The notes: generated from the letters alone by a model not told the origin. A DNA stretch of 64,000 bases from Acidobacteriota bacterium (GCA_021781455.1 JAJXWV010000033.1:201169-265168), one strand, 5' to 3'. Counted from the first letter of the stretch, positions 7,033 to 52,680 are shown. Translations and numbers: made by a program.

Positions 7033-7077
7033 TTCGCGCGAACTATACAGATCGAATACGCGACTGGCCAGTCCGAG

Positions 7078-7470
7078 CGGGTAGCGGGTAGCGGGTAGCG
7101 GGTAGCGGGTAGCGGGTAGCGGGTAGCGGGTAGCGGGTAGCGGCCAAAGATAGGCGTTCGCACATGAGTCAGCTGAATTGTTCGAGATGCAGCTAATCGC
7201 TCGCATGTTTTCTGACCACAGAGCACACAGAGAGCACTGAGTTCATCGCGCAGGCGTCTCCGTGTTCTCTGTGCTCTCTGTGGTTAAGAAAACCCGTCCC
7301 CGGCGCCGACACTCGAACAGCCTACCCGCTGAAGTTCCGGAAGAGCCCTGAATTCAGAACGCAGAATTCAGAATGAAGATCGAAGGCCAGAGCGCCGGAT
7401 CGTCCTGCCTCTGCCCGCTCGTCTCCTCAGACGTCCTGCTCCCTACCCGCTACCCGCTACCCGCTACCCG
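7078..7470. repeat. Inverted arrays of tandem GGGTAGC heptamers (7078-7144 forward, 7441-7470 reverse) bracketing a roughly 300-bp lower-GC loop; the loop contains a second hairpin (ccacagagcacacagagagcac / gtgttctctgtgctctctgtgg)
   Basis: Direct reading: about 9 heptamer units on the left, 4 reverse-complement units on the right. The same heptamer occurs at 2165-2190 and 34166-34266. Confidence 0.8.
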
Positions 7471-7491
7471 CTCGTCTATCATTCGCCGCAC

Positions 7492-10800: not shown

Positions 10801-11428
10801 GCAGCACGGCACGGACGGGGCTGGCATCGCCTCCCCGGATCCGCAGCGGAAGCGCGATCAGCTCGTAGGAACCCTCTTCGACGCCGTCGAGCACCAACCC
10901 TTCCAGATTCGCCATGTCGTGGCGGGCCAGCGCCTGGTGCGCCTCGAGCGCCTTCGACTCGAAAGGATCGACCGAAGGCGTATCGATACCGACGAGGATC
11001 ACGCCGCGTCCGTGAAGCTCGTCGACGAGCTCCGGCGAGAGGCTGGCGAAGTCGTCGTTCCAGCGACGCGGATCGGGAAACGTGCCGGTATGGAACAGCA
11101 CACGCGGAGCATCGATCCTCTTTCCAGCGACGTGCCGCGGCATGATGCGCGCGGAACGGGCCACGTCGACACGGAAGACGTTGCAGCGCCCGACGAAAAA
11201 ATCGAGAGGCCTGGCCGCGACGTCCTCGCCGCCGGCGAGGTAGTGGCTCGGCGCGTCGGTATGCGCGCCGACGTGCAGGGTGGTGCGAATGTCCGACAGC
11301 GTGAGGTTCGCGCCGGCGCTCATGTCCAGATTCACGTTGCGCTCGAAGGGGGTATCGCCCGGCCAGACGCCGATCGAAGAGTCGACGACGGGCGAGATGT
11401 CGATCAACCGTGCGCTGTCGTCGCTCAT
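10790..11428 (-). CDS. Cyclase-family protein (kynurenine formamidase / arylformamidase-like)
   Basis: HVGAHTDAPSHY metal-binding motif of the KynB/cyclase family, about 213 aa. ATGA overlap with the upstream gene's stop indicates translational coupling. The track ORF's N-terminal extension is an artefact. Confidence 0.75.
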   Translation of the reverse strand: MSDDSARLIDISPVVDSSIGVWPGDTPFERNVNLDMSAGANLTLSDIRTTLHVGAHTDAPSHYLAGGEDVAARPLDFFVGRCNVFRVDVARSARIMPRHVAGKRIDAPRVLFHTGTFPDPRRWNDDFASLSPELVDELHGRGVILVGIDTPSVDPFESKALEAHQALARHDMANLEGLVLDGVEEGSYELIALPLRIRGGDASPVRAVLRTL

Positions 11429-12897
11429 GCCGAAGCGATCACCTTGAGCTCGACGGCGATGGGAGTCGGCAGCGAATCGACTCCCACGGTCGTGCGCGTC
11501 GGCTGGATGGCGCCGAGGAGCTCGCCGTAGGCGCGGTTGAAGCGGTCGAAGTCGCGCTTCATGTCGGTCAGGTAGACCGTCACGTCGAGGATCTTGTCGA
11601 GCGAGCTTCCGGCATCCTCCAGGATGACGCGTACGTTCTCGATGGCCGCCCGCGTCTGCACCTCGATGTCGTGGTCGATGATGCTGCCGGCGCCGTCGCG
11701 AACCACGCCGGGAATCTCGCCGCGGCCGGGCTGCCGCGGCCCGATGCCGGAGAGGAACAGGAATTCGCCGACTCTTCGCGCGTGCGGATAGGGACCGACC
11801 GGCTTCGCGGCGCGCGGCGTGACGAGGACATTCGAGTGTTGGGGCACAGACACTCTGGCCGGTGCTGTCTCCGGGTCCGGCACGGCACGGAGCGCCGGCG
11901 CGACGCGTCCGACGAGCCATTCCGGCTCGGGCGGATGTTCGTCATGCGAGTCCAGGGCGCCGGAGGCGGGAACGCGTTGCGATTCGGCGAGCACGTTGTG
12001 CGTCTCGAGGCCGCCCCCCTGCTCCATCGCGCCCACCGGGGCTTCGTCGAACTCCTTCTCCCAGGCGATCTCCTTGCGCGGATTCGGCGTCAGCTCGACG
12101 AGGGCACATCCGGTGCCCCAGACGGGCTGGTAGTCGACCACGCGCCCGTCGTAGAGGTTGTTTTCGCCGGCCAGTGCGGCCAGCCACCAGATGCCCTTGA
12201 ATCCCATGTCCGCGTTCGCTTCGCGGCCGAACTCGCGCGCCACCTGGGCCACGTCCTCGAGCCGTCCCTCGCCTAACATTTCCAGGATCTTGCGGTTCCA
12301 CTCGTCGTCTTTCTGCGATGAGATATGGTCGCAGGCCGGATCGATCTCGGCGACCTCGTAACGGTTGGACAGATTCGAGACCAGGACCACGGCGGTCCTG
12401 CGGCCGTAGCGCTCGATCGCTTCGCGCCCGAGCCGCCCTAACAGGCGCGTCTCGTCCCGTTCCGCGTAGATGTTGCAGGAGACGACCGAGGCGGGGATGG
12501 CGTTGCCCGGATTGAGCAGCTTCAGCGCGGTCACCGTGCCGGTGTCGATGGGAAATCCGTGGTAGTCGACCGTGGCCGCCTGCAGGCCGGCCTCTCTGGC
12601 GATCTCGCAGTAAAGCTTTCCGAACTGCGGGTCGATGCGGAAATCGTACGGGATCTCGCCGAACTCGTACCAGTTCTGGTCGACGAGCAGCCACCTGGGA
12701 TTCGGGTCGACCTGAAACAGGTGCCCGATCACGGAGAACCACTGCGTCGAGTACAGCAGCAGCAGTTCTGCGCCGCTGGCGGCGATCTCGCGGCCGATGG
12801 CTTCGTAGCTGGCTTTCAACGACGCCCAGCCAGAGTTGCGCTCGGGCGCAAGCAGGATGTGCGGCTGGCCCGCGGCAATGTAGAGCGTTTCGATCAC
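11425..12897 (-). CDS. Fusion protein: N-terminal LigB-type (class III extradiol dioxygenase-like) domain plus C-terminal RidA/YjgF (2-aminomuconate-deaminase-like) domain
   Basis: The N-terminal roughly 280 aa resemble MhpB/AmnA/AmnB-family subunits, but several canonical His ligands look substituted. The C-terminal roughly 125 aa are a textbook RidA fold (AKPVGPYPHARRVGEFLFLSGIGP...TTVGVDSLPTPIAVELKVIA). Confidence 0.6.
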   Translation of the reverse strand: MIETLYIAAGQPHILLAPERNSGWASLKASYEAIGREIAASGAELLLLYSTQWFSVIGHLFQVDPNPRWLLVDQNWYEFGEIPYDFRIDPQFGKLYCEIAREAGLQAATVDYHGFPIDTGTVTALKLLNPGNAIPASVVSCNIYAERDETRLLGRLGREAIERYGRRTAVVLVSNLSNRYEVAEIDPACDHISSQKDDEWNRKILEMLGEGRLEDVAQVAREFGREANADMGFKGIWWLAALAGENNLYDGRVVDYQPVWGTGCALVELTPNPRKEIAWEKEFDEAPVGAMEQGGGLETHNVLAESQRVPASGALDSHDEHPPEPEWLVGRVAPALRAVPDPETAPARVSVPQHSNVLVTPRAAKPVGPYPHARRVGEFLFLSGIGPRQPGRGEIPGVVRDGAGSIIDHDIEVQTRAAIENVRVILEDAGSSLDKILDVTVYLTDMKRDFDRFNRAYGELLGAIQPTRTTVGVDSLPTPIAVELKVIASA

Positions 12898-12907
12898 GTC
12901 TCGCCCT

Positions 12908-13365
12908 CTTTGAATTGAAAATTGAAAATTGAAAATTGAAAACGAAAAAAAACGAGAAATCAGTTTCGGCTGCGTCGAACGATCGTCGTCAGAATGGCAA
13001 TCAATTCGCTTGACTCTTCGATCAGCGGCTCAATCTTCTTGTGCTGCTCAGACAGCGATCGGTTCAAAATTCTGAGCCAGTACCTCGCCTCACGCGCTTC
13101 CTTGAGAGCGATTGTGCATTTAGAGATGAAATCCGCGCGACTTTGCGCCGCGTCAGCTTCCTCGAGATTTGCTCCCACAGAGCTCGCCGCATTGCTCCCC
13201 TGCGCACTGGTTCCGCGTAAAGCGGGTTCAGAGTGGTAGATGGAGCGGTGCAAGTCGACGACCGCACAGGCGAATTCAAACACACGTTCGCGCAGCTCCG
13301 AGCCCTTTCCGTCTTCGCGGTCTCGCACTCTCATGTCTTTTCAATTTTTCAATTTTCAATTTCGT
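12908..13365. mobile_element. Low-GC insertion carrying a four-helix-bundle protein gene, bounded by inverted arrays of GAAAATT heptamers (12908-12955 and 13338-13365)
   Basis: ttgaaaattgaaaattgaaaattgaaaa on the left and ttttcaatttttcaattttcaattt on the right. Composition is much more AT-rich than the flanking operon. Confidence 0.45.
12960..13334 (-). CDS. Four-helix-bundle protein (23S rRNA intervening-sequence protein family, TIGR02436-like)
   Basis: 124 aa helical protein with the conserved (F/Y)xL..Q..RA..S motif context typical of IVS/four-helix-bundle proteins. Atypical codon usage. Confidence 0.65.
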   Translation of the reverse strand: MRVRDREDGKGSELRERVFEFACAVVDLHRSIYHSEPALRGTSAQGSNAASSVGANLEEADAAQSRADFISKCTIALKEAREARYWLRILNRSLSEQHKKIEPLIEESSELIAILTTIVRRSRN

Positions 13366-13507
13366 TCGAGCCCCATCCTGAGGCTCTGCGCCAGATGGCA
13401 GAGCATCGCGCCGGCGGACATCCTTCCCCATTTCGGAACCATGTCATCGCGGATGCTTTTTACGCGATTGAGGATCTCGAGGCGGGCCGCGTCTTCCCAG
13501 AGGGTCT

Positions 13508-14989
13508 TCATAGTTTCACGCAGACGTTTTTCGGTTCCGTGAAGAAGTTCAGCGACTCGAATCCGCCCTCGCGGCCGACGCCGCTTTCTTTCATGCCGCC
13601 GAACGGGACGCGCAGGTCGCGCAGGAGCCAGCAGTTGATCCAGACCGTTCCGCTGTCGAGGGCGGCGGCGACGCGATGGGCGCGCCGCAGGTCGCGCGTC
13701 CACACCGTGGCGGAGAGTCCATAGCGCGTACCGTTGGCGAGCGCCAGCGCCTCCTCTTCGCTGTCGAACGGCGTCACCGTCACCACGGGCCCGAAAATCT
13801 CGTCCTGCAGGACGTCGGAGTCGCACGACAGGCCGGTGATGACGGTCGGCTCGACGAAGAATCCCGGGCGGTCGACCCTCTTTCCGCCCGTGTGGATCGT
13901 GCCGCCTTCCTTCTGCGCGATCTCCAAGTACCCGGAGACCTTCTGCAGGTGGGCTTCGCTGATCAACGCGCCGACGTCGGTCGTCTCGTCGAGCGGGTCG
14001 CCGACGCGAAGCCGCTTCGTCGCTTCGACAAAGCCGTCGAGGAAGGCATCGAAGACTGCCCTCTCCACGAAGATGCGCGATCCGCAAAGGCAGATCTCGC
14101 CCTGGTTCCAGAAGCTGGAGCGGATGGAGGTGGCGATCGCCTCCTCGAGATCGGCATCGGCGAAGAGGATGTTCGGGTTCTTTCCGCCGAGCTCCAGCGA
14201 AAGCTTCTTGAACATGGGGGCAGCGTTCGCGGCCACGCCCGCACCGGTCACCGTCCCGCCGGTGAACGAGAGCAGCGGCACATCGGGATGCCTGACCAGC
14301 GCACGGCCTGCCTTCTGGCCGTGTCCGTGGACGATGTTGATCACGCCCGGCGGGATTTCCGCCTCGAGCGAAAGCTCCGCGAGGCGATGGGCCGTGAGCG
14401 GAGTGAACTCGCTCGGTTTGGCGACGCACGTGTTTCCCGCGGCGATGGCCGGTGCGATCTTCCAGGAGAGCAGGTAGAGCGGCAGGTTCCACGGCGAGAT
14501 CAGGCCGGCCACGCCGACCGGCTGGCGCAGCGTGTAATTGAGCGCCGTTCCATCCGTGGAATGCGCCTCGGTGGACTGATGCAGGATCGCCGTGGCGAAG
14601 AAGCGGAAGTTCGCTGCGGCGCGCGGGATGTCGAGGCGCCGCGCCAGCGAAATCGGTTTCCCGCCGTCGCGCGCCTCCAGTCGCGCCAGCTCCTCGAGAT
14701 TGCCTTCGATCAGATCGCCGAGGCGGAGCAGCATCGCCGACCGTTCCGCGGCGGGCGTGTTGCTCCACGCCCTGAACGCCTGGCGGGCGGCGCTGACGGC
14801 GTTCTCGATGTCGCGCTCGTCGCTGTCCGGAACGGAGGCCATGACCTCGCCCGTGCCCGGCTCGATGTCCGGAATCGTCGTGCCCGAGGCAGCCGCTGTG
14901 AAACGACCGCCGATGAAGTTGCGAACGGCGACCGAAGACTGCGACCTGTTTCTCTTCGCTGCTTTGCTGCTCTCGTCCACATCAGTCAT
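13508..14989 (-). CDS. NAD(P)-dependent aldehyde dehydrogenase (2-hydroxy/2-aminomuconic semialdehyde dehydrogenase-like)
   Basis: ALDH catalytic motifs LELGGKNP and the catalytic Cys (EICLCGSR), plus an FTGGTVTG-type cofactor motif. 493 aa. Confidence 0.85.
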   Translation of the reverse strand: MTDVDESSKAAKRNRSQSSVAVRNFIGGRFTAAASGTTIPDIEPGTGEVMASVPDSDERDIENAVSAARQAFRAWSNTPAAERSAMLLRLGDLIEGNLEELARLEARDGGKPISLARRLDIPRAAANFRFFATAILHQSTEAHSTDGTALNYTLRQPVGVAGLISPWNLPLYLLSWKIAPAIAAGNTCVAKPSEFTPLTAHRLAELSLEAEIPPGVINIVHGHGQKAGRALVRHPDVPLLSFTGGTVTGAGVAANAAPMFKKLSLELGGKNPNILFADADLEEAIATSIRSSFWNQGEICLCGSRIFVERAVFDAFLDGFVEATKRLRVGDPLDETTDVGALISEAHLQKVSGYLEIAQKEGGTIHTGGKRVDRPGFFVEPTVITGLSCDSDVLQDEIFGPVVTVTPFDSEEEALALANGTRYGLSATVWTRDLRRAHRVAAALDSGTVWINCWLLRDLRVPFGGMKESGVGREGGFESLNFFTEPKNVCVKL

Positions 14990-19424: not shown

Positions 19425-19850
19425 TCTTTATGGCTCTTCAGGATATTCAGTGGGTCCGGCGAGGTTTCGAAGGGCACTCCAGCCGTGGAGGCGTGAGGTT
19501 TAAGGCGGCTTAGCCGCCGTAAGAATTTAGCGGCGGCCGTCAGGCCGCCGGAACAAGCGATCGCATCAGCGTACGAGGGCACGAAGTGCCCGACAGAAGG
19601 CCGGGAAACAGACCGACGATCTGTCGCGCGCTGCGCGCGCTCGGACGCTGGGTCGGGCCGATCGGACGGCGGCCTGACGGCCGCCGCTAAATGATGTCGG
19701 CGGCTCCGCCGCCTCGACAAAGCCTTACTGGCAACTTCGACGTCTGACGGCCAGGGGTGAGGGCTTCTCCGTAAACGATTGACTCAGTAGCCATGAACCC
19801 AGCTGTCAGTTTCTGATCTCACCCACGGAAATCCCCGTAGAGCCATCTTT
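19425..19850. repeat. Family-B palindromic MITE-like element (core aatttagcggcggccgtcaggccgccg ... cggcggcctgacggccgccgctaaat)
   Basis: Copies in inverse orientation at 26855-27240, and a shorter copy at 51120-51335. Confidence 0.8.
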
Positions 19851-23568: not shown

Positions 23569-23582
23569 GCTTACCTCAGATG

Positions 23583-23650
23583 GCAGATGGCAGATGGCAG
23601 ATCGCAGGTTTGAATCCGCCTGCGATCCGCGATCTGCCATCTGCGATCTT
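23583..23650. repeat. Inverted tandem array of GCAGATG/GCAGATC heptamers forming a hairpin
   Basis: tggcagatggcagatggcagatcgcagg..cctgcgatccgcgatctgccatctgcgatc between bshB1 and bshA. Confidence 0.75.
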
Positions 23651-23652
23651 CA

Positions 23653-24372
23653 TCAGAGTTCCCTTCCCTTGTAGGCCGCCACGATGTCGTCGAGGCGCGG
23701 AGGCTGGCGCGTGACGAACGGCTCGCCGTAGCGGGCGCCGATCTGCGCGCCGAAATGGCGGCCGCGCGCTTCGATCATCTCCATGAAATCGGGCCTCGAG
23801 AGCACCGTCAGCGGCTCTTTCGACTTCGGATCGTAGAACTGCGACTTGAATGCGGCGATGGCGCGCATCTTCGTCTTCCAGCTCGCCGTGACGTCGACGA
23901 TGAACGTCGGCATGTGCACGTGATGCTGGAAGAAGTACACCACTGCCTGGGGTCGATGCGCGCGCCGGCCCGTGTCGATGGCCTTCAGCCCGGCGTAGAA
24001 CGCGGCATCGCCGACGACGCGGCCGGCGCGCTCGTGGTCGGGATGGCGGTCCTGCGGGTACGGCGCGAAGACGACCGACGGCCGAGCACGGCGGATGACG
24101 TCGATGAGCGCCATCTCCTGTTCGCGGCCGGTCTGGAGGCCGCCATCATGGAAATCGAGCTGCTCGCGGAACGAGGCGCCGAGGATCTTCGCGGAGGCCC
24201 GAGCCTCGCGTTTGCGGATCTGCGGCGTCCCGCGCGTGCCCATCTCCCCGCGGGTGAGGTCGACGATGCCCACGCGCAGCCCGTCCTTCACGCTTTTCGC
24301 GACGGTCGCTCCGCACGAGAGCTCCACGTCGTCCGGATGAGCGCCGATGAACAGAAGATCAACTTTTTCCAT
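23653..24372 (-). CDS. bshB1: Bacillithiol biosynthesis deacetylase BshB1 (LmbE/PIG-L family)
   Basis: LFIGAHPDDVELSCGAT (PIG-L zinc motif HPDDE) and conserved HPDH. Confidence 0.85.
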   Translation of the reverse strand: MEKVDLLFIGAHPDDVELSCGATVAKSVKDGLRVGIVDLTRGEMGTRGTPQIRKREARASAKILGASFREQLDFHDGGLQTGREQEMALIDVIRRARPSVVFAPYPQDRHPDHERAGRVVGDAAFYAGLKAIDTGRRAHRPQAVVYFFQHHVHMPTFIVDVTASWKTKMRAIAAFKSQFYDPKSKEPLTVLSRPDFMEMIEARGRHFGAQIGARYGEPFVTRQPPRLDDIVAAYKGREL

Positions 24373-24394
24373 GATCACATGTGAAGTGCTGAGT

Positions 24395-24465
24395 ACTGAG
24401 TGCTGAGTACTGAGTGCCGAGAACTCACGGGTCTTACTCAGTACTCAGCACTCAGTACTCAGCAC
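24395..24465. repeat. Inverted tandem array of CTGAGTA/CTGAGTG heptamers (hairpin)
   Basis: gtgctgagtactgagtgctgagtactgag ... ctcagtactcagcactcagtactcagcac. Confidence 0.8.
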
Positions 24466-24469
24466 TTCC

Positions 24470-26807: not shown

Positions 26808-27330
26808 CAAAAAGAAAATGTTGAATGTTGAATGTTGGCCCTACAGGGATTTCCGTGGGTGAGATGAAAATTGGCATTGACAGCTGGGTTCATTGCTACC
26901 GATGGTTTGCGGAGAAGCCCTCACCCCTGGACGTCTGACGTCGAATTTGCCATTGGAGCTTTGTCGAGGCGGCGGAGCCGTCGACATCATTTAGCGGCGG
27001 CCGTCAGGCCGCCGTCCGATCGGCCCGACCCAGCGTCCGAGCGCGCGCAGCGTGCGACAGATCCTCGGTCTGTTTCCCGGCCTTCTGTCGGGCACTTCGT
27101 GCCCTCGTACGCTGATGCGATCGCTTGCTCCGGCGGCCTGACGGCCGCCGCTAAATTCTTGCGGCGGCTAGGCCGCCTTGAAAGTCGCTGCTCCGCGGCG
27201 CGAGTGCACTCTTCGAAATTTCGCCGGACCCACTGAATATCCTGAAGCGCCTGAATATTCAATGTTGTCAGAGTCTCCGGTTCGCCTCTTCATCCAACAC
27301 TCAATATTCAACATTCAACACTTCGCTTTC
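26808..27330. repeat. Family-B MITE copy (26855-27240) sitting between inverted arrays of GAATGTT/GAATATT heptamers (26808-26835 and 27245-27330)
   Basis: aatgttgaatgttgaatgttgg on the left, caacactcaatattcaacattcaacac on the right. The internal 385 bp are the reverse complement of the 19425-19850 copy. Confidence 0.75.
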
Positions 27331-31940: not shown

Positions 31941-32010
31941 CCGCCAGCGCTGAGTCCTGAGTGCTGAGTAGAACGCGACTCAGGACTCAGGACTCAGGAC
32001 TCAGGACTTC
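31941..32010. repeat. Inverted tandem array of CTGAGTC/CTGAGTG heptamers
   Basis: gctgagtcctgagtgctgagta ... gactcaggactcaggactcaggactcaggac. Confidence 0.75.
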
Positions 32011-34165: not shown

Positions 34166-34266
34166 AATCGAGACGGGTAGCGGGTAGCGGGTAGCGGGTA
34201 GCGGGTAGGAAACACGGCCTACCCGGTACACGCTACCCGCTACACGCTACCCGCTACCCGCTACCC
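34166..34266. repeat. Inverted tandem arrays of GGGTAGC heptamers (hairpin)
   Basis: gggtagc x4 ... ctacccggtacacgctacccgctacacgctacccgctacccgctacccgc. Confidence 0.8.
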
Positions 34267-34286
34267 GCTGTCTTCTTGGGGGGCAC

Positions 34287-35824: not shown

Positions 35825-35960
35825 GAGTGCTGAGTACTGAGTGCTGAGTACTGAGTGCTGAGTACTGAGTGCTGAGTACTGAGTGCTGAGTACTGAGTGG
35901 TCAGTACTGAAGCCTCGGTTTTTCCCACTCAGTACTCAGCACTCAGTACTCAGCACTTCG
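35825..35960. repeat. Inverted tandem arrays of CTGAGTA/CTGAGTG heptamers (about 9 units per arm)
   Basis: Direct reading. The longest example of this hairpin class in the window. Confidence 0.85.
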
Positions 35961-41430: not shown

Positions 41431-42758
41431 TCACCGGAACACCTCGATCACCCGCTTCAGACCGGCGATCAGCGCATCGACTTCTTCACGAGTGTTGTAC
41501 ATGCCGAACGACGCCCGGCTCGTCGCCGGAACGTTGAAGCGCATCATGAGCGGTTGCGCGCAGTGATGCCCGGTGCGGATGGCCACACCTTCCTGGTCGA
41601 GGATCGTGCCGATGTCGTGCGGATGAACGCCTTCCAGCGTGAAGGAGATGACACTGGCCTTCTCGGCCGCCGTGCCGATGATGCGCAATCCGGGAATCTC
41701 CACGAGCCTCCCGGTCGCGTAGACGAGCAGGTCGTGCTCGTGAGCGCCGATTTTCTCGATTCCGGCCGTGCTCACGTAGTCGAGTGCCGCAGCCAGGCCG
41801 AGCACCCCGGAGATATTCGGCGTTCCCGCTTCGAACTTGTACGGCAGCGCGTTGTAGGTGGTCTTCTCGAAGGTGACCGACAGGATCATGTCGCCGCCGC
41901 CCTGCCAGGGAGGCATCGCGTCGAGGATCGGCTGCTTGCCGTAGAGGACGCCGATGCCGGTCGGCCCGTAGACCTTGTGTCCTGAGAATGCGTAGAAATC
42001 GCAGTCGAGCTCCTGCACGTCGATGGGCAGATGAGGCACTCCCTGGGCGCCGTCGATCAGGATCAGCGATCCGTTGGCGTGGGCCAGGGCGATCATCTGC
42101 CGGATCGGGTTGATCGTGCCGAGGGCGTTGGAGGCGTGGCCGACGGCCACGATCTTCGTGCGCGGAGTGAGGAGGTTGGCGAATTGATCGAGCATGACCT
42201 CGCCAGCGTCGTTGACCGGCGCGATGCGCAGCTGGGCGTGCTTCTCGCCGCACAGCAGCTGCCACGGGACGATGTTCGAGTGATGCTCGATGGCCGTGAT
42301 CAGGACCTCGTCGCCCTCACCCACATTGGCGCGGCCCCAGGCCTGGGAGACGAGGTTGATCGACTCGGTCGTGCCGCGCGTGAAGACGATCTCCTTCTCG
42401 TCGCGGGCATTGAGGAAGCGCTTCACGGTCGTGCGCGCCGCCTCGTACTCGCTGGTGGCGACTTCGCTCAGGTAGTGCACGCCGCGATGAACGTTCGAGT
42501 TTTCTTCGCTGTAGTAGCGAACCAGGCGGTCGATCACCGCCTGCGGTTTCTGGGTGGTGGCTGCGTTGTCGAGATAGACGAGCTTCCGCCCGTGGACGCT
42601 GCGCGCCAGGATCGGGAAGTCGCGGCGGATGCTCTCGACGTCGTAGTCGGACCGCAGACCGCGGACCGCAGACCGCAGCGGCTGTGCTTCCGAGAGGCGG
42701 TCGGTGGTCGGCGATCGGTGCGCTGTGGTCTGCGGTCCGCGGTCTGCGGTCCGGGTGG

Positions 42759-44880: not shown

Positions 44881-44965
44881 ATCTGAAGTGCTGAGTACTG
44901 AGTGCTGAGTACTGAGTGTCCGACTTGCCCACTCAGTACTCAGCACTCAGCACTCAGTACTGCCT
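44881..44965. repeat. Inverted arrays of CTGAGTA/CTGAGTG heptamers between sufB and sufC
   Basis: The track ORF for sufC reads through this as MGKSDTQYSALSTQHF. Confidence 0.85.
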
Positions 44966-46904: not shown

Positions 46905-47180
46905 CGGGCGTCACCCAGTCGAGGGGTCAAAACAGTACCACTGCGGTACGGTTTATACAACCGCGCGGGCGGGCGGGTTTGTTCCTCGTGGTCGGAGCGT
47001 TCCGTACGGGGCGCGGAGGGGCTGTGGGGTACGCGGTCACCGGGTCACCAGGTCGCCGGGTCTCGAGGTCGCGAGGTCGGATCCACCCGGTGACCTGGTG
47101 ACCCGGTGACCCGATGTCCCGCCGCTGGAACATGCGACCCTCCCTCCCCGTTCTACACCCGCGAAAAGGAGAGTTGCCGA

Positions 47181-51002: not shown

Positions 51003-51020
51003 GCAGACAGGATAAGACAA

Positions 51021-51370
51021 GTGCTGAGTCCTGAGTGCTGAGTCCTGAGTGCTGAGTCCTGAGTGCTGAGTCCTGAGTGCTGAGTCCTGAGTGCTGAGTG
51101 CTGAGTGCTGAGCGCTGAGCGCCGAGGCGGCGGAGCCGCCGAAAGAATTTAGCGGCGGCCGTCAGGCCGCCGGAGGGTCGGTCGTGTGAGCGTAAGAGGG
51201 CGCGAAGCGCCCGGCAGAAAACTGGGGAGAAACACAAGGATCTGTCGCACGCTTTGCGCGCTCGGACGCTGCGTCGGCTGATCCGACGGCGGCCTGACGG
51301 CCGCCGCTAAATTCTTTCGGCGGCTCCGCCGCCTCAGCACTCGCCCACTCAGGACTCAGGACTCAGCACT
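51021..51370. repeat. Family-B MITE copy (51120-51335) nested between inverted arrays of CTGAGTC/CTGAGTG heptamers (51021-51115 and 51335-51370)
   Basis: About 13 heptamers on the left and 4 reverse-complement units on the right; the MITE core is in between. Confidence 0.8.
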
Positions 51371-52596: not shown

Positions 52597-52680
52597 CATC
52601 ACGGGCTCTTGGTTGTTGGCTCTTGGCTCTTGGGATGGCCGGGGTTGCCCAAGAGCCAAGAGCCAACAGCCAGGAGCCAA
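52597..52680. repeat. Inverted arrays of GCTCTTG/GTTGTTG heptamers upstream of the giant ORF
   Basis: ggctcttggttgttggctcttggctcttgg ... cccaagagccaagagccaacagccaggagccaac. Confidence 0.75.

Follow-up and report, generated by a model that had tools for sequence, protein, structure and literature searches.

Four-helix-bundle (4HB) proteins matched by the PF05635 and TIGR02436 profiles form a very large family, known mainly as the open reading frames (ORFs) of rRNA intervening sequences (IVSs) and as the DGR protein Avd. In the stretch of acidobacterial DNA analysed here, 64,000 nucleotides long and referred to below as the window, a gene of this type lies within a catabolic operon and is enclosed by inverted arrays of tandem heptamers. 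The locus thus poses the question of whether the gene is a regular member of the operon, whether it came to rest in a hairpin that was already there, or whether gene and arrays form a single cassette with a history of its own. As we show here, the array-ORF-array module comes and goes at gene junctions, gives way to other lineages of its kind, reaches a second junction and decays until only solo hairpins remain.

The gene, its arms and its neighbours

The features of the locus are as follows.

11425..12897, minus strand: LigB (AmnA-like)::RidA fusion, the downstream host gene (domain match)
12908..12942, minus strand: 3' arm, (TTTTCAA)x4.3 on the coding strand, reverse complement of the 5' arm
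12943..12959, minus strand: T-rich spacer of 17 nt from the stop codon to the 3' array, ttctcgttttttttcg on the coding strand
12960..13334, minus strand: 4HB protein gene, 124 aa (PF05635/TIGR02436 profile matches, fold, dN/dS)
13336..13365, minus strand: 5' arm, reading GAAATTGAAAATTGAAAAATTGAAAAGAC on the coding strand, with three ATTGAAA-type units, one of which has an extra A
13356..13511, minus strand: 51-aa ORF between the aldehyde dehydrogenase and 4HB genes, its start overlapping the dehydrogenase stop by 4 nt
13508..14989, minus strand: aldehyde dehydrogenase, 2-aminomuconic-semialdehyde-dehydrogenase-like, the upstream host gene (domain match)

The genes are read from one strand in the order Asparaginase_II, aldehyde dehydrogenase, 51-aa ORF, 4HB, LigB::RidA and cyclase, and the identical arrangement is present on 10 contigs from several samples. 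The initial annotation of this DNA had described a 124-aa, IVS-type 4HB gene in the loop of a heptamer hairpin, on an AT-rich island between the aldehyde dehydrogenase and LigB::RidA genes and on the same strand as both. The flanking genes were named correctly, but the 51-aa ORF separates the dehydrogenase from the 4HB gene. The island is borne out by a GC content of 0.45-0.585 over 12900-13500, compared with 0.62-0.72 on either side, and the loop by the arrays themselves. An (AATTGAA)x4.3 array of 100% identity (12913-12942) lies downstream of the 4HB stop and a (TTTTCAA)x3.4 array (13338-13362) upstream of the ATG, and the two form an inverted repeat of 27 nt with 85% complementarity, 390 nt apart. 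The cassette unit of ~0.45 kb comprises a purine-rich array of three to five heptamers, the 4HB ORF and a reverse-complement array. The 5' arm stops 3 nt short of the 4HB ATG, and the TGA stop of the upstream 51-aa ORF falls within its first heptamer; the 3' arm ends ~15 nt ahead of the GTG start of LigB::RidA (12897), with an AGAGGG ribosome-binding site between them. With one mismatch or fewer, GAAAATTGAAAATT occurs in the 64 kb only at this element, the expectation from shuffles being 0.00.

The arms are paired in both the MFE and the centroid RNA folds, and the energy of the arm duplex is -34.6 kcal/mol as against -16.0 +/- 3.4 with shuffled 3' flanks. The RNA fold of the element as a whole is not more stable than that of shuffles (z = -1.07). 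No Rfam model matched within 12700-13600 of the window, and no promoter-like site was found in the element.

The gene type given in the initial annotation is confirmed by profile matches and fold. The window protein matches PF05635 (23S_rRNA_IVP; Pfam) with an E value of 2.6e-15 and 57 bits against a cutoff of 33.8, and TIGR02436 ('four helix bundle protein'; NCBIfam) with 1.9e-20 and 73.1 bits against a cutoff of 24. An AlphaFold (AF2) model, computed from 39 homologues and as a monomer only, displays four long helices at a pLDDT of 92.9. Its top fold matches in Foldseek are the S23-family structures 2RLD (TM 0.8-0.9) and 2GSC (TM 0.73-0.82), followed by Avd (8UB7, 4DWL; TM 0.65-0.77). 2RLD is also a sequence match (phmmer, E 1e-19), whereas the similarity to Avd is too low for phmmer to detect with the window protein. 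Scored against the motif GxxRxxxSxxxNxxE (PMC3936711), the protein contains S52-x3-N56-x2-E59, which is nearly invariant across the subfamily; where the motif has Arg, the window protein has N48 and its relatives have varying residues. Nuclease, recombinase and HUH motifs are absent from the 4HB protein, and no PADLOC or PHROG model matches it. A second, weak 4HB match in the window (24082-24312; tblastn, E 0.026) was rejected as spurious; it lies inside a PIG-L/BshB-like gene.

Closely related orthologue pairs of the 4HB gene have a dN/dS of 0.04-0.17, which indicates that in most lineages this is a functional gene and not a relic. The neighbouring enzyme has a similar ratio (0.05-0.13), and despite this similarity the 4HB protein diverges ~3x faster.

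Occupied, empty and decayed junctions

It could be argued that the 4HB protein is an ordinary, host-beneficial member of an aminophenol/tryptophan-catabolic operon, perhaps a chaperone or regulator, whose hairpin serves in translational or stability control. This proposal draws on the presence of the gene, co-oriented and under purifying selection, at this position in at least 29 related loci. The named relatives of the window are Thermoanaerobaculia (Acidobacteriota), and in 11 species-representative genomes the 4HB gene fills the same slot, preceded there by a LigB paralogue of ~300 aa (amnB-like) that follows the dehydrogenase. A census of the amnB|LigB::RidA junction, carried out by a metagenome scan with LigB::RidA and by targeted look-ups, returned 29 occupied loci, 24 empty ones and 8 in some other state. 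At the occupied loci the gap of 398-511 nt contains the 4HB gene with its arrays. At the empty loci, which are devoid of any trace of a 4HB gene, amnB-like and LigB::RidA share 4 nt (as in L087, gcggTTTGAttctg) or are separated by no more than 6 nt; on the host-gene tree the two states, occupied and empty, are intermingled. The contention that the gene was inserted into the operon is thus upheld by the empty site of relatives, and these empty sites largely refute the view of the gene as an ordinary operon member. Further points make that view highly improbable: two deep 4HB clades alternate at the site in near-identical hosts, the window has kept the gene despite losing the amnB-like catalytic subunit, some copies are frameshifted or internally deleted, and the same packaging is found beside unrelated housekeeping genes in many phyla, with the family also occurring between cas genes (PMC3936711). 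The initial annotation had allowed for the prospect that other copies lack flanking arrays and that the gene is conserved here as a regular part of the operon. The other copies do have inverted arrays, and many relatives do have the gene in this place, but its presence is polymorphic, with one lineage replacing another, and it is not a fixed component.

The junctions in the 'other' state include degraded forms of the element. In L102 the 4HB gene is internally deleted, with the two AATTGAA arrays still in place along with 52 nt that encode part of its C-terminus, and in L086 the gene is frameshifted and the arrays are intact, a variant unit, AATTGGG, being mirrored at the symmetric position of both arms. 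L142 and L147 carry ORF-less heptamer hairpins of 119-125 nt.

Other material is also seen at this junction. L092 and L093 have an insert of 128 nt that is an unrelated GC-rich palindrome (ggagtgcggcgaccgcagtcgccgctttg followed further on by its reverse complement), L106 has an insert of 53 nt and L113 one of 1404 nt. In nine loci (L013, L014, L015, L104, L111, L117, L121, L128 and L151) the conserved N-terminal codons of LigB::RidA come right up to the 3' array or run into it, with no canonical start codon between the two.

An alternative suggested by the initial annotation is that heptamer hairpins arise first in intergenic DNA and serve as landing pads, into whose loops 4HB genes and MITEs are later inserted. 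The window does contain ~18 inverted heptamer/octamer hairpins, two of its three family-B MITE copies lie inside such hairpins, and rRNA IVSs replace helix tips (PMC4990558). The landing-pad model is not supported, however, since no hairpin is present at any of the empty junction sites: their gap is ~0 nt, and no empty AATTGAA-type hairpin precedes the element. The unit, moreover, is specific to the 4HB clade, and the short-loop AATTGAA hairpins are located where another lineage has a truncated 4HB gene, while L102 retains 4HB codons. No lineage basal to all carriers was found with an ORF-less AATTGAA-type hairpin free of 4HB remnants. We therefore consider it scarcely plausible that the hairpins came first. 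The same annotation had also entertained the possibilities that the hairpins are carriers and that the whole is a small selfish module, and both have fared better. The arrays accompany the 4HB gene at two junctions, and the element behaves as a small semi-autonomous module.

The hairpins of the window have GC-rich units and are mostly at gene junctions, examples being 23577-23649, 24385-24466, 31950-32008, 34174-34269, 35825-35957, 42650-42751, 44887-44961, 47035-47121 and 52604-52680. Their units recur at different loci (AGTGCTG/AGTACTG at four sites, CCGAGGAA at three, CGGGTAG and GACCGCA at two each), which identifies them as dispersed repeat families and not as local products. The family-B MITE, a palindrome of ~210 nt, is present in three copies that are ~83% identical (51127-51346, 26966-27176 and 19505-19715). 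The first lies within AGTGCTG arms (51020-51370) and the second in the loop of inverted (AATGTTG)n / (CATTCAA)n arrays (26817-26837 and 27291-27320, 453 nt apart); arrays were not seen around the third. The AATGTTG unit is also the arm unit of a Thermoanaerobaculia 4HB subfamily (L019-L025, L030 and L032), and this AT-rich array pair (26817-27320) may be a decayed 4HB element, in which a search for a 4HB remnant found none. A solitary array at 7343-7380 (GAATTCA GAACGCA GAATTCA GAATGAA) resembles the 5' arms of the ORF-less hairpins of L142 and L147 and of the 4HB loci L016 and L062; it sits in the 300-nt loop of an AGCGGGT/CTACCCG hairpin (7076-7472).

The element is found at a second junction of the operon, between the aldehyde dehydrogenase and amnB genes (Aldedh|amnB). 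There, L131 has an element whose 4HB gene is truncated after 39 codons and whose 3' array and junction are duplicated, L086 has an element with a loop of 92 nt, and L007 and L009 each have a short-loop solo hairpin; all four use AATTGAA units. The 4HB element has thus moved to a second target and decays to ORF-less heptamer hairpins, and the ORF-less hairpins at these junctions are demonstrably or plausibly deletion derivatives (L102, L131, L086 and L007). The L008 locus contains, at the same Aldedh|amnB junction that holds the AATTGAA hairpins in L007 and L009, a RAYT-type transposase gene (HUH, ...MPNH[IV]H...) with GC-rich REP hairpins (L008:3350-4050); comparable genes are present at L064:1092-1673 and L081:1010-1633. 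Such junctions in the operon seem to be hot spots at which several kinds of hairpin element collect.

Residence of the element at two junctions may also bear on the gene content of the window, in which no amnB-like gene, the catalytic LigB paralogue of relatives, was found anywhere (1-64000). The first 48 residues of the 51-aa ORF correspond to the N-terminus of a DUF1569/DinB-type protein of ~147 aa (65% identity to P0241), and this reading frame breaks off precisely where the 5' arm has its outer edge. L007 and L009 have one AATTGAA array pair on each side of the amnB gene, the two pairs being co-oriented. Recombination between two such co-oriented copies flanking the amnB-like gene would delete it and leave the arrangement seen in the window, and we infer that the loss of amnB from this lineage is most simply explained in this way. 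The dN/dS of LigB::RidA is raised in the window lineage (0.21-0.25, compared with 0.05-0.13 in relatives), which, together with the lost amnB-like gene, suggests a decaying pathway.

A comparison of occupied and empty sites revealed no consistent target-site duplication, and the spacer after the 3' arm varies from 6 to 33 nt. No transposase was identified for the 4HB element in these loci and no insertion mechanism was found. Within this clade, gain and loss could proceed by homologous recombination in the flanking genes alone.

Repeat units and the phylogeny of the gene

The repeat unit (ATTGAAA, ATTGAGA, ATTGAGG or ATTGTGA) tracks the phylogeny of the 4HB gene, and both arms change together. 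The clades of the 4HB protein tree coincide exactly with the unit: AATTGAA is found in 13 loci, including the window, and the units AATTGAG, GGATTGA and AATTGTG belong to the other clade. The unit of the 5' arm recurs, as its reverse complement, in the 3' arm of every one of the 25 distinct occupied loci. For a test of covariation, arms of three units were phase-locked on their invariant ATTG/CAAT cores. In this register 93.9% of cells are paired, compared with 25-55% in slid registers, and double-sided change is evident in 8 of 21 pairs. The number of covarying cells is 36, as against 12.6 in shuffles, and none of 500 shuffles reached 36. It should be emphasized that these cells represent few independent events, some three or four unit switches, each fixed throughout both arms.

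The history of the host genes is a separate one. One and the same site holds members of two deep 4HB clades in hosts of 91% identity: the LigB::RidA proteins of L014 and L115 share 91% identity, their 4HB proteins share 51%, and their units are different. Overall, the Spearman correlation is 0.02. The histories of host and element are decoupled. A single MAG (CAWGHO01) contains two 4HB elements, L006 and L022, with the units AATTGAA and GAATGCA, each matched in its own arms; as these differ within one genome, the units are element-specific and not genome-specific. The arrays therefore belong to the 4HB gene, with which they travel and evolve.

The idea that the array unit is copied from its target was considered, as codons 2-4 of LigB::RidA (ATT CTS AAG) contain ATTCTCA. 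It was rejected because AATTGAA arrays are also present at the Aldedh|amnB junction, where the downstream start is different, and because related GAATKNA units occur in unrelated loci.

The mismatches in the stems speak to the level at which complementarity is maintained. On the sense strand there are 40 G.U and 57 A.C mismatches (p = 0.10), and thus no excess of G.U; complementarity of the arms could accordingly be kept at the DNA level and not by selection on the RNA.

Packaging across the family and relation to known systems

The generality of this packaging was assessed in 66 further members of the 4HB family in unrelated genomic contexts, drawn from more than ten phyla (classes of Acidobacteriota, Gemmatimonadota, Chloroflexota, Bacteroidota, Cloacimonadota, WOR-3, Spirochaetota, Cyanobacteria, Planctomycetota and others). 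An upstream/downstream inverted repeat with a score of at least 35 flanks 49 of them (74%), compared with 6 of 302 control genes (2%), the controls being other genes of the same loci; a stricter, earlier scan gave 51% of 4HB loci against 1.9% (p = 3e-26). The six control genes that scored positive include two RAYT genes with flanking REPs, an established case of a gene set among hairpins, and these serve as a positive control for the scan itself. A period of 7 is clear (tandem match of at least 0.7) in 33 of the 49 array loci and is the best-fitting period in nearly all others; in some Cloacimonadota and WOR-3 loci the period is 8. The units differ widely between subfamilies (GAATGCA, GAATGTT, GAAGGCA, AAAAGTA, GTGAGAA and others). 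Across the 49 array loci the 5' arm has a median length of 33 nt, is purine-rich on the sense strand (median 0.76) and is A+T-rich (0.67) even within GC-rich genomes, and in 43 it holds a stop triplet. A perfect example of 33 nt is provided by the viral contig L169, where (TAATTCG)x4.7 stops 1 nt short of the ATG and is matched by an exact complement that runs into the stop codon. The gene upstream has the same orientation in 47 of 62 loci, and its end usually coincides with the array edge, ~25-40 nt ahead of where the 4HB gene begins. Further copies of an element's own unit within 10 kb are rare (2 of 43 elements).

A quarter of the surveyed members are without clear arrays; these adjoin housekeeping genes. 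The suggestion that the array-less members are Avds of DGRs was discarded: no reverse transcriptase adjoins them, and none lies in rRNA.

In L049, L060 and L079 (Cloacimonadota and WOR-3), 4HB genes with period-8 arrays (AAATGACT, AAATACCT) are located upstream of a carboxyl-transferase gene, a position that constitutes another conserved 4HB junction, in different genomes.

Inverted period-7 packaging appears to be a family-wide hallmark of 4HB genes, and that it is usual across many phyla argues for a movable cassette rather than an ordinary operon gene. In the literature as far as it was covered, which was incompletely, no paper was found that presents mirrored heptamer arrays as typical of 4HB genes at large, and the hallmark has apparently not been described before.

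The nearest known counterpart is the IVS of 23S rRNA. In Coxiella burnetii this carries a 4HB ORF (S23p) and has inverted repeats at its borders, which pair into a 28-bp stem; three tandem heptamers (GACAGAT), the number of which varies between strains, directly precede the S23p start, RNase III cleaves at the first repeat, and the ORF appears to be untranslated and decaying (PMC4990558). The window element resembles the IVSs of C. burnetii and Leptospira in its protein family, in the position of the ORF in the loop of a stem of ~25-30 bp made by terminal repeats, in the tandem heptamers of variable copy number right upstream of the start, and in its sporadic, horizontally acquired distribution. 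Its complementary borders do yield the long stem, with the ORF in the loop, that characterizes an IVS. The differences are that the host transcript is a protein-coding operon and not rRNA, that both arms of elements of the window type are pure tandem heptamer arrays, and that the ORF is under purifying selection whereas that of Coxiella is decaying. As it lies between protein-coding genes and not in a helix of 16S or 23S rRNA, the window element is IVS-like but not an IVS.

Two other groups share single traits with it. Avd has the four-helix-bundle fold and is a pentameric barrel that binds structured RNA; in the DGR ribonucleoprotein RNA rests on this barrel (10.1101/2023.10.23.563531), and PF05635 has been noted to resemble it (PMC10053308). 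The window gene, however, has no reverse transcriptase, template repeat or variable repeat nearby, its neighbours being Aldedh, LigB::RidA, Cyclase and Asparaginase_II, and it is therefore not part of a DGR. In Beggiatoaceae, cyanobacteria and Bacteroidetes, intergenic direct arrays of the heptamer TAACTGA extend to just before start codons (PMC4679880). Like the 4HB arrays they are tandem heptamers that abut a start codon and carry stop triplets, and translational control has been proposed for them, but they are direct repeats with no mirrored partner and are not tied to a gene family.

REPIN-RAYT systems (PMC3116915) are similar in that one small gene lies between inverted hairpin repeats that also occur without the ORF. 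They differ in that the 4HB protein lacks the HUH/Y1 transposase motifs and in that the 4HB repeats are period-7 tandem arrays whose sequence varies between subfamilies; the element is not a REP/RAYT, and the true RAYTs in L008, L064 and L081 look different. The parallel nevertheless underlies a rival reading with a smaller, though appreciable, chance of being right. In it the element would be mobile at the DNA level, the inverted arrays being the functional ends (hairpins or cruciforms in single-stranded DNA) of a transposon-like unit, bound by a 4HB protein that recruits host replication or recombination, as in RAYT/REP, and the arms being kept alike by template switching or gene conversion. 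Such an element would account for the transfer of the unit with the gene to a second junction, the symmetrical mirroring of variant units even in the frameshifted L086 copy, the lack of G.U bias in the stems, the existence of solo hairpins with the AATTGAA unit, and the rearrangement breakpoints at array edges (the 51-aa ORF of the window; the duplication and deletion in L131). That the survey scan also caught REP-flanked RAYT genes shows their formal architecture to be the same. The 4HB protein, however, has no nuclease or recombinase motif, and the one relative of it that has been characterized is an accessory protein that binds RNA. Occupied and empty sites showed no target-site duplication between them, own-unit copies within 10 kb are as rare as noted above, and the array sequences are wholly different between subfamilies, which have only the period and the purine bias in common.

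We think it probable, on balance, that the element is a promoter-less 4HB cassette of the IVS type in an mRNA operon, whose arrays would pair into a stem processed by RNase III. Having no promoter of its own, the cassette would be transcribed by read-through from the upstream gene, and its arrays would pair in the transcript to give a stem of 25-35 bp. The stem would hold the stop codon of the upstream gene (the TGA of the first ATTGA unit in most loci) and the start region of the 4HB gene (often a TTG in the last unit), and sometimes the start of the downstream gene. By analogy with the 23S rRNA IVSs that bear 4HB genes, IVSs being removed by RNase III with no rejoining of the transcript, RNase III may cut the array stem, and such a cut would release the cassette and make the insertion tolerable for the host transcript. 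The 4HB protein, as a putative pentameric RNA-binding barrel, might act on its own arrays of four to five heptamers, with about one subunit per heptamer, and the element would thereby be regulated or propagated.

A bolder proposal, which we regard as rather doubtful, is that 4HB genes with inverted period-7 arrays are the autonomous members of a widespread, unrecognized class of transposase-less mobile elements, of which the ORF-less junction hairpins would be non-autonomous or decayed derivatives, as in REP/RAYT, and that the pentameric barrel reads the heptamer register at about one subunit per repeat. If true, it would account as well for the origin and the movement of rRNA IVSs.

The protein family and the anatomy of IVSs were known; what is apparently new is the occurrence of a 4HB cassette of the IVS type in mRNA operons and its inverted period-7 packaging. 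4HB genes located between cas genes such as cmr3 and cmr2 have been read as functional partners (PMC3936711), and the present findings suggest that these, too, are cassettes at gene junctions. Since the cassettes sit inside operons, 4HB genes between cas or metabolic genes should not be read as partners of their neighbours. From such positions the cassettes can delete host genes by recombination, as probably happened with amnB in the window. This study, through the packaging, the covarying arms, the turnover and the decay of the element, links three puzzles: how IVSs originate and move, what S23p-type proteins do, and where intergenic heptamer repeats come from.
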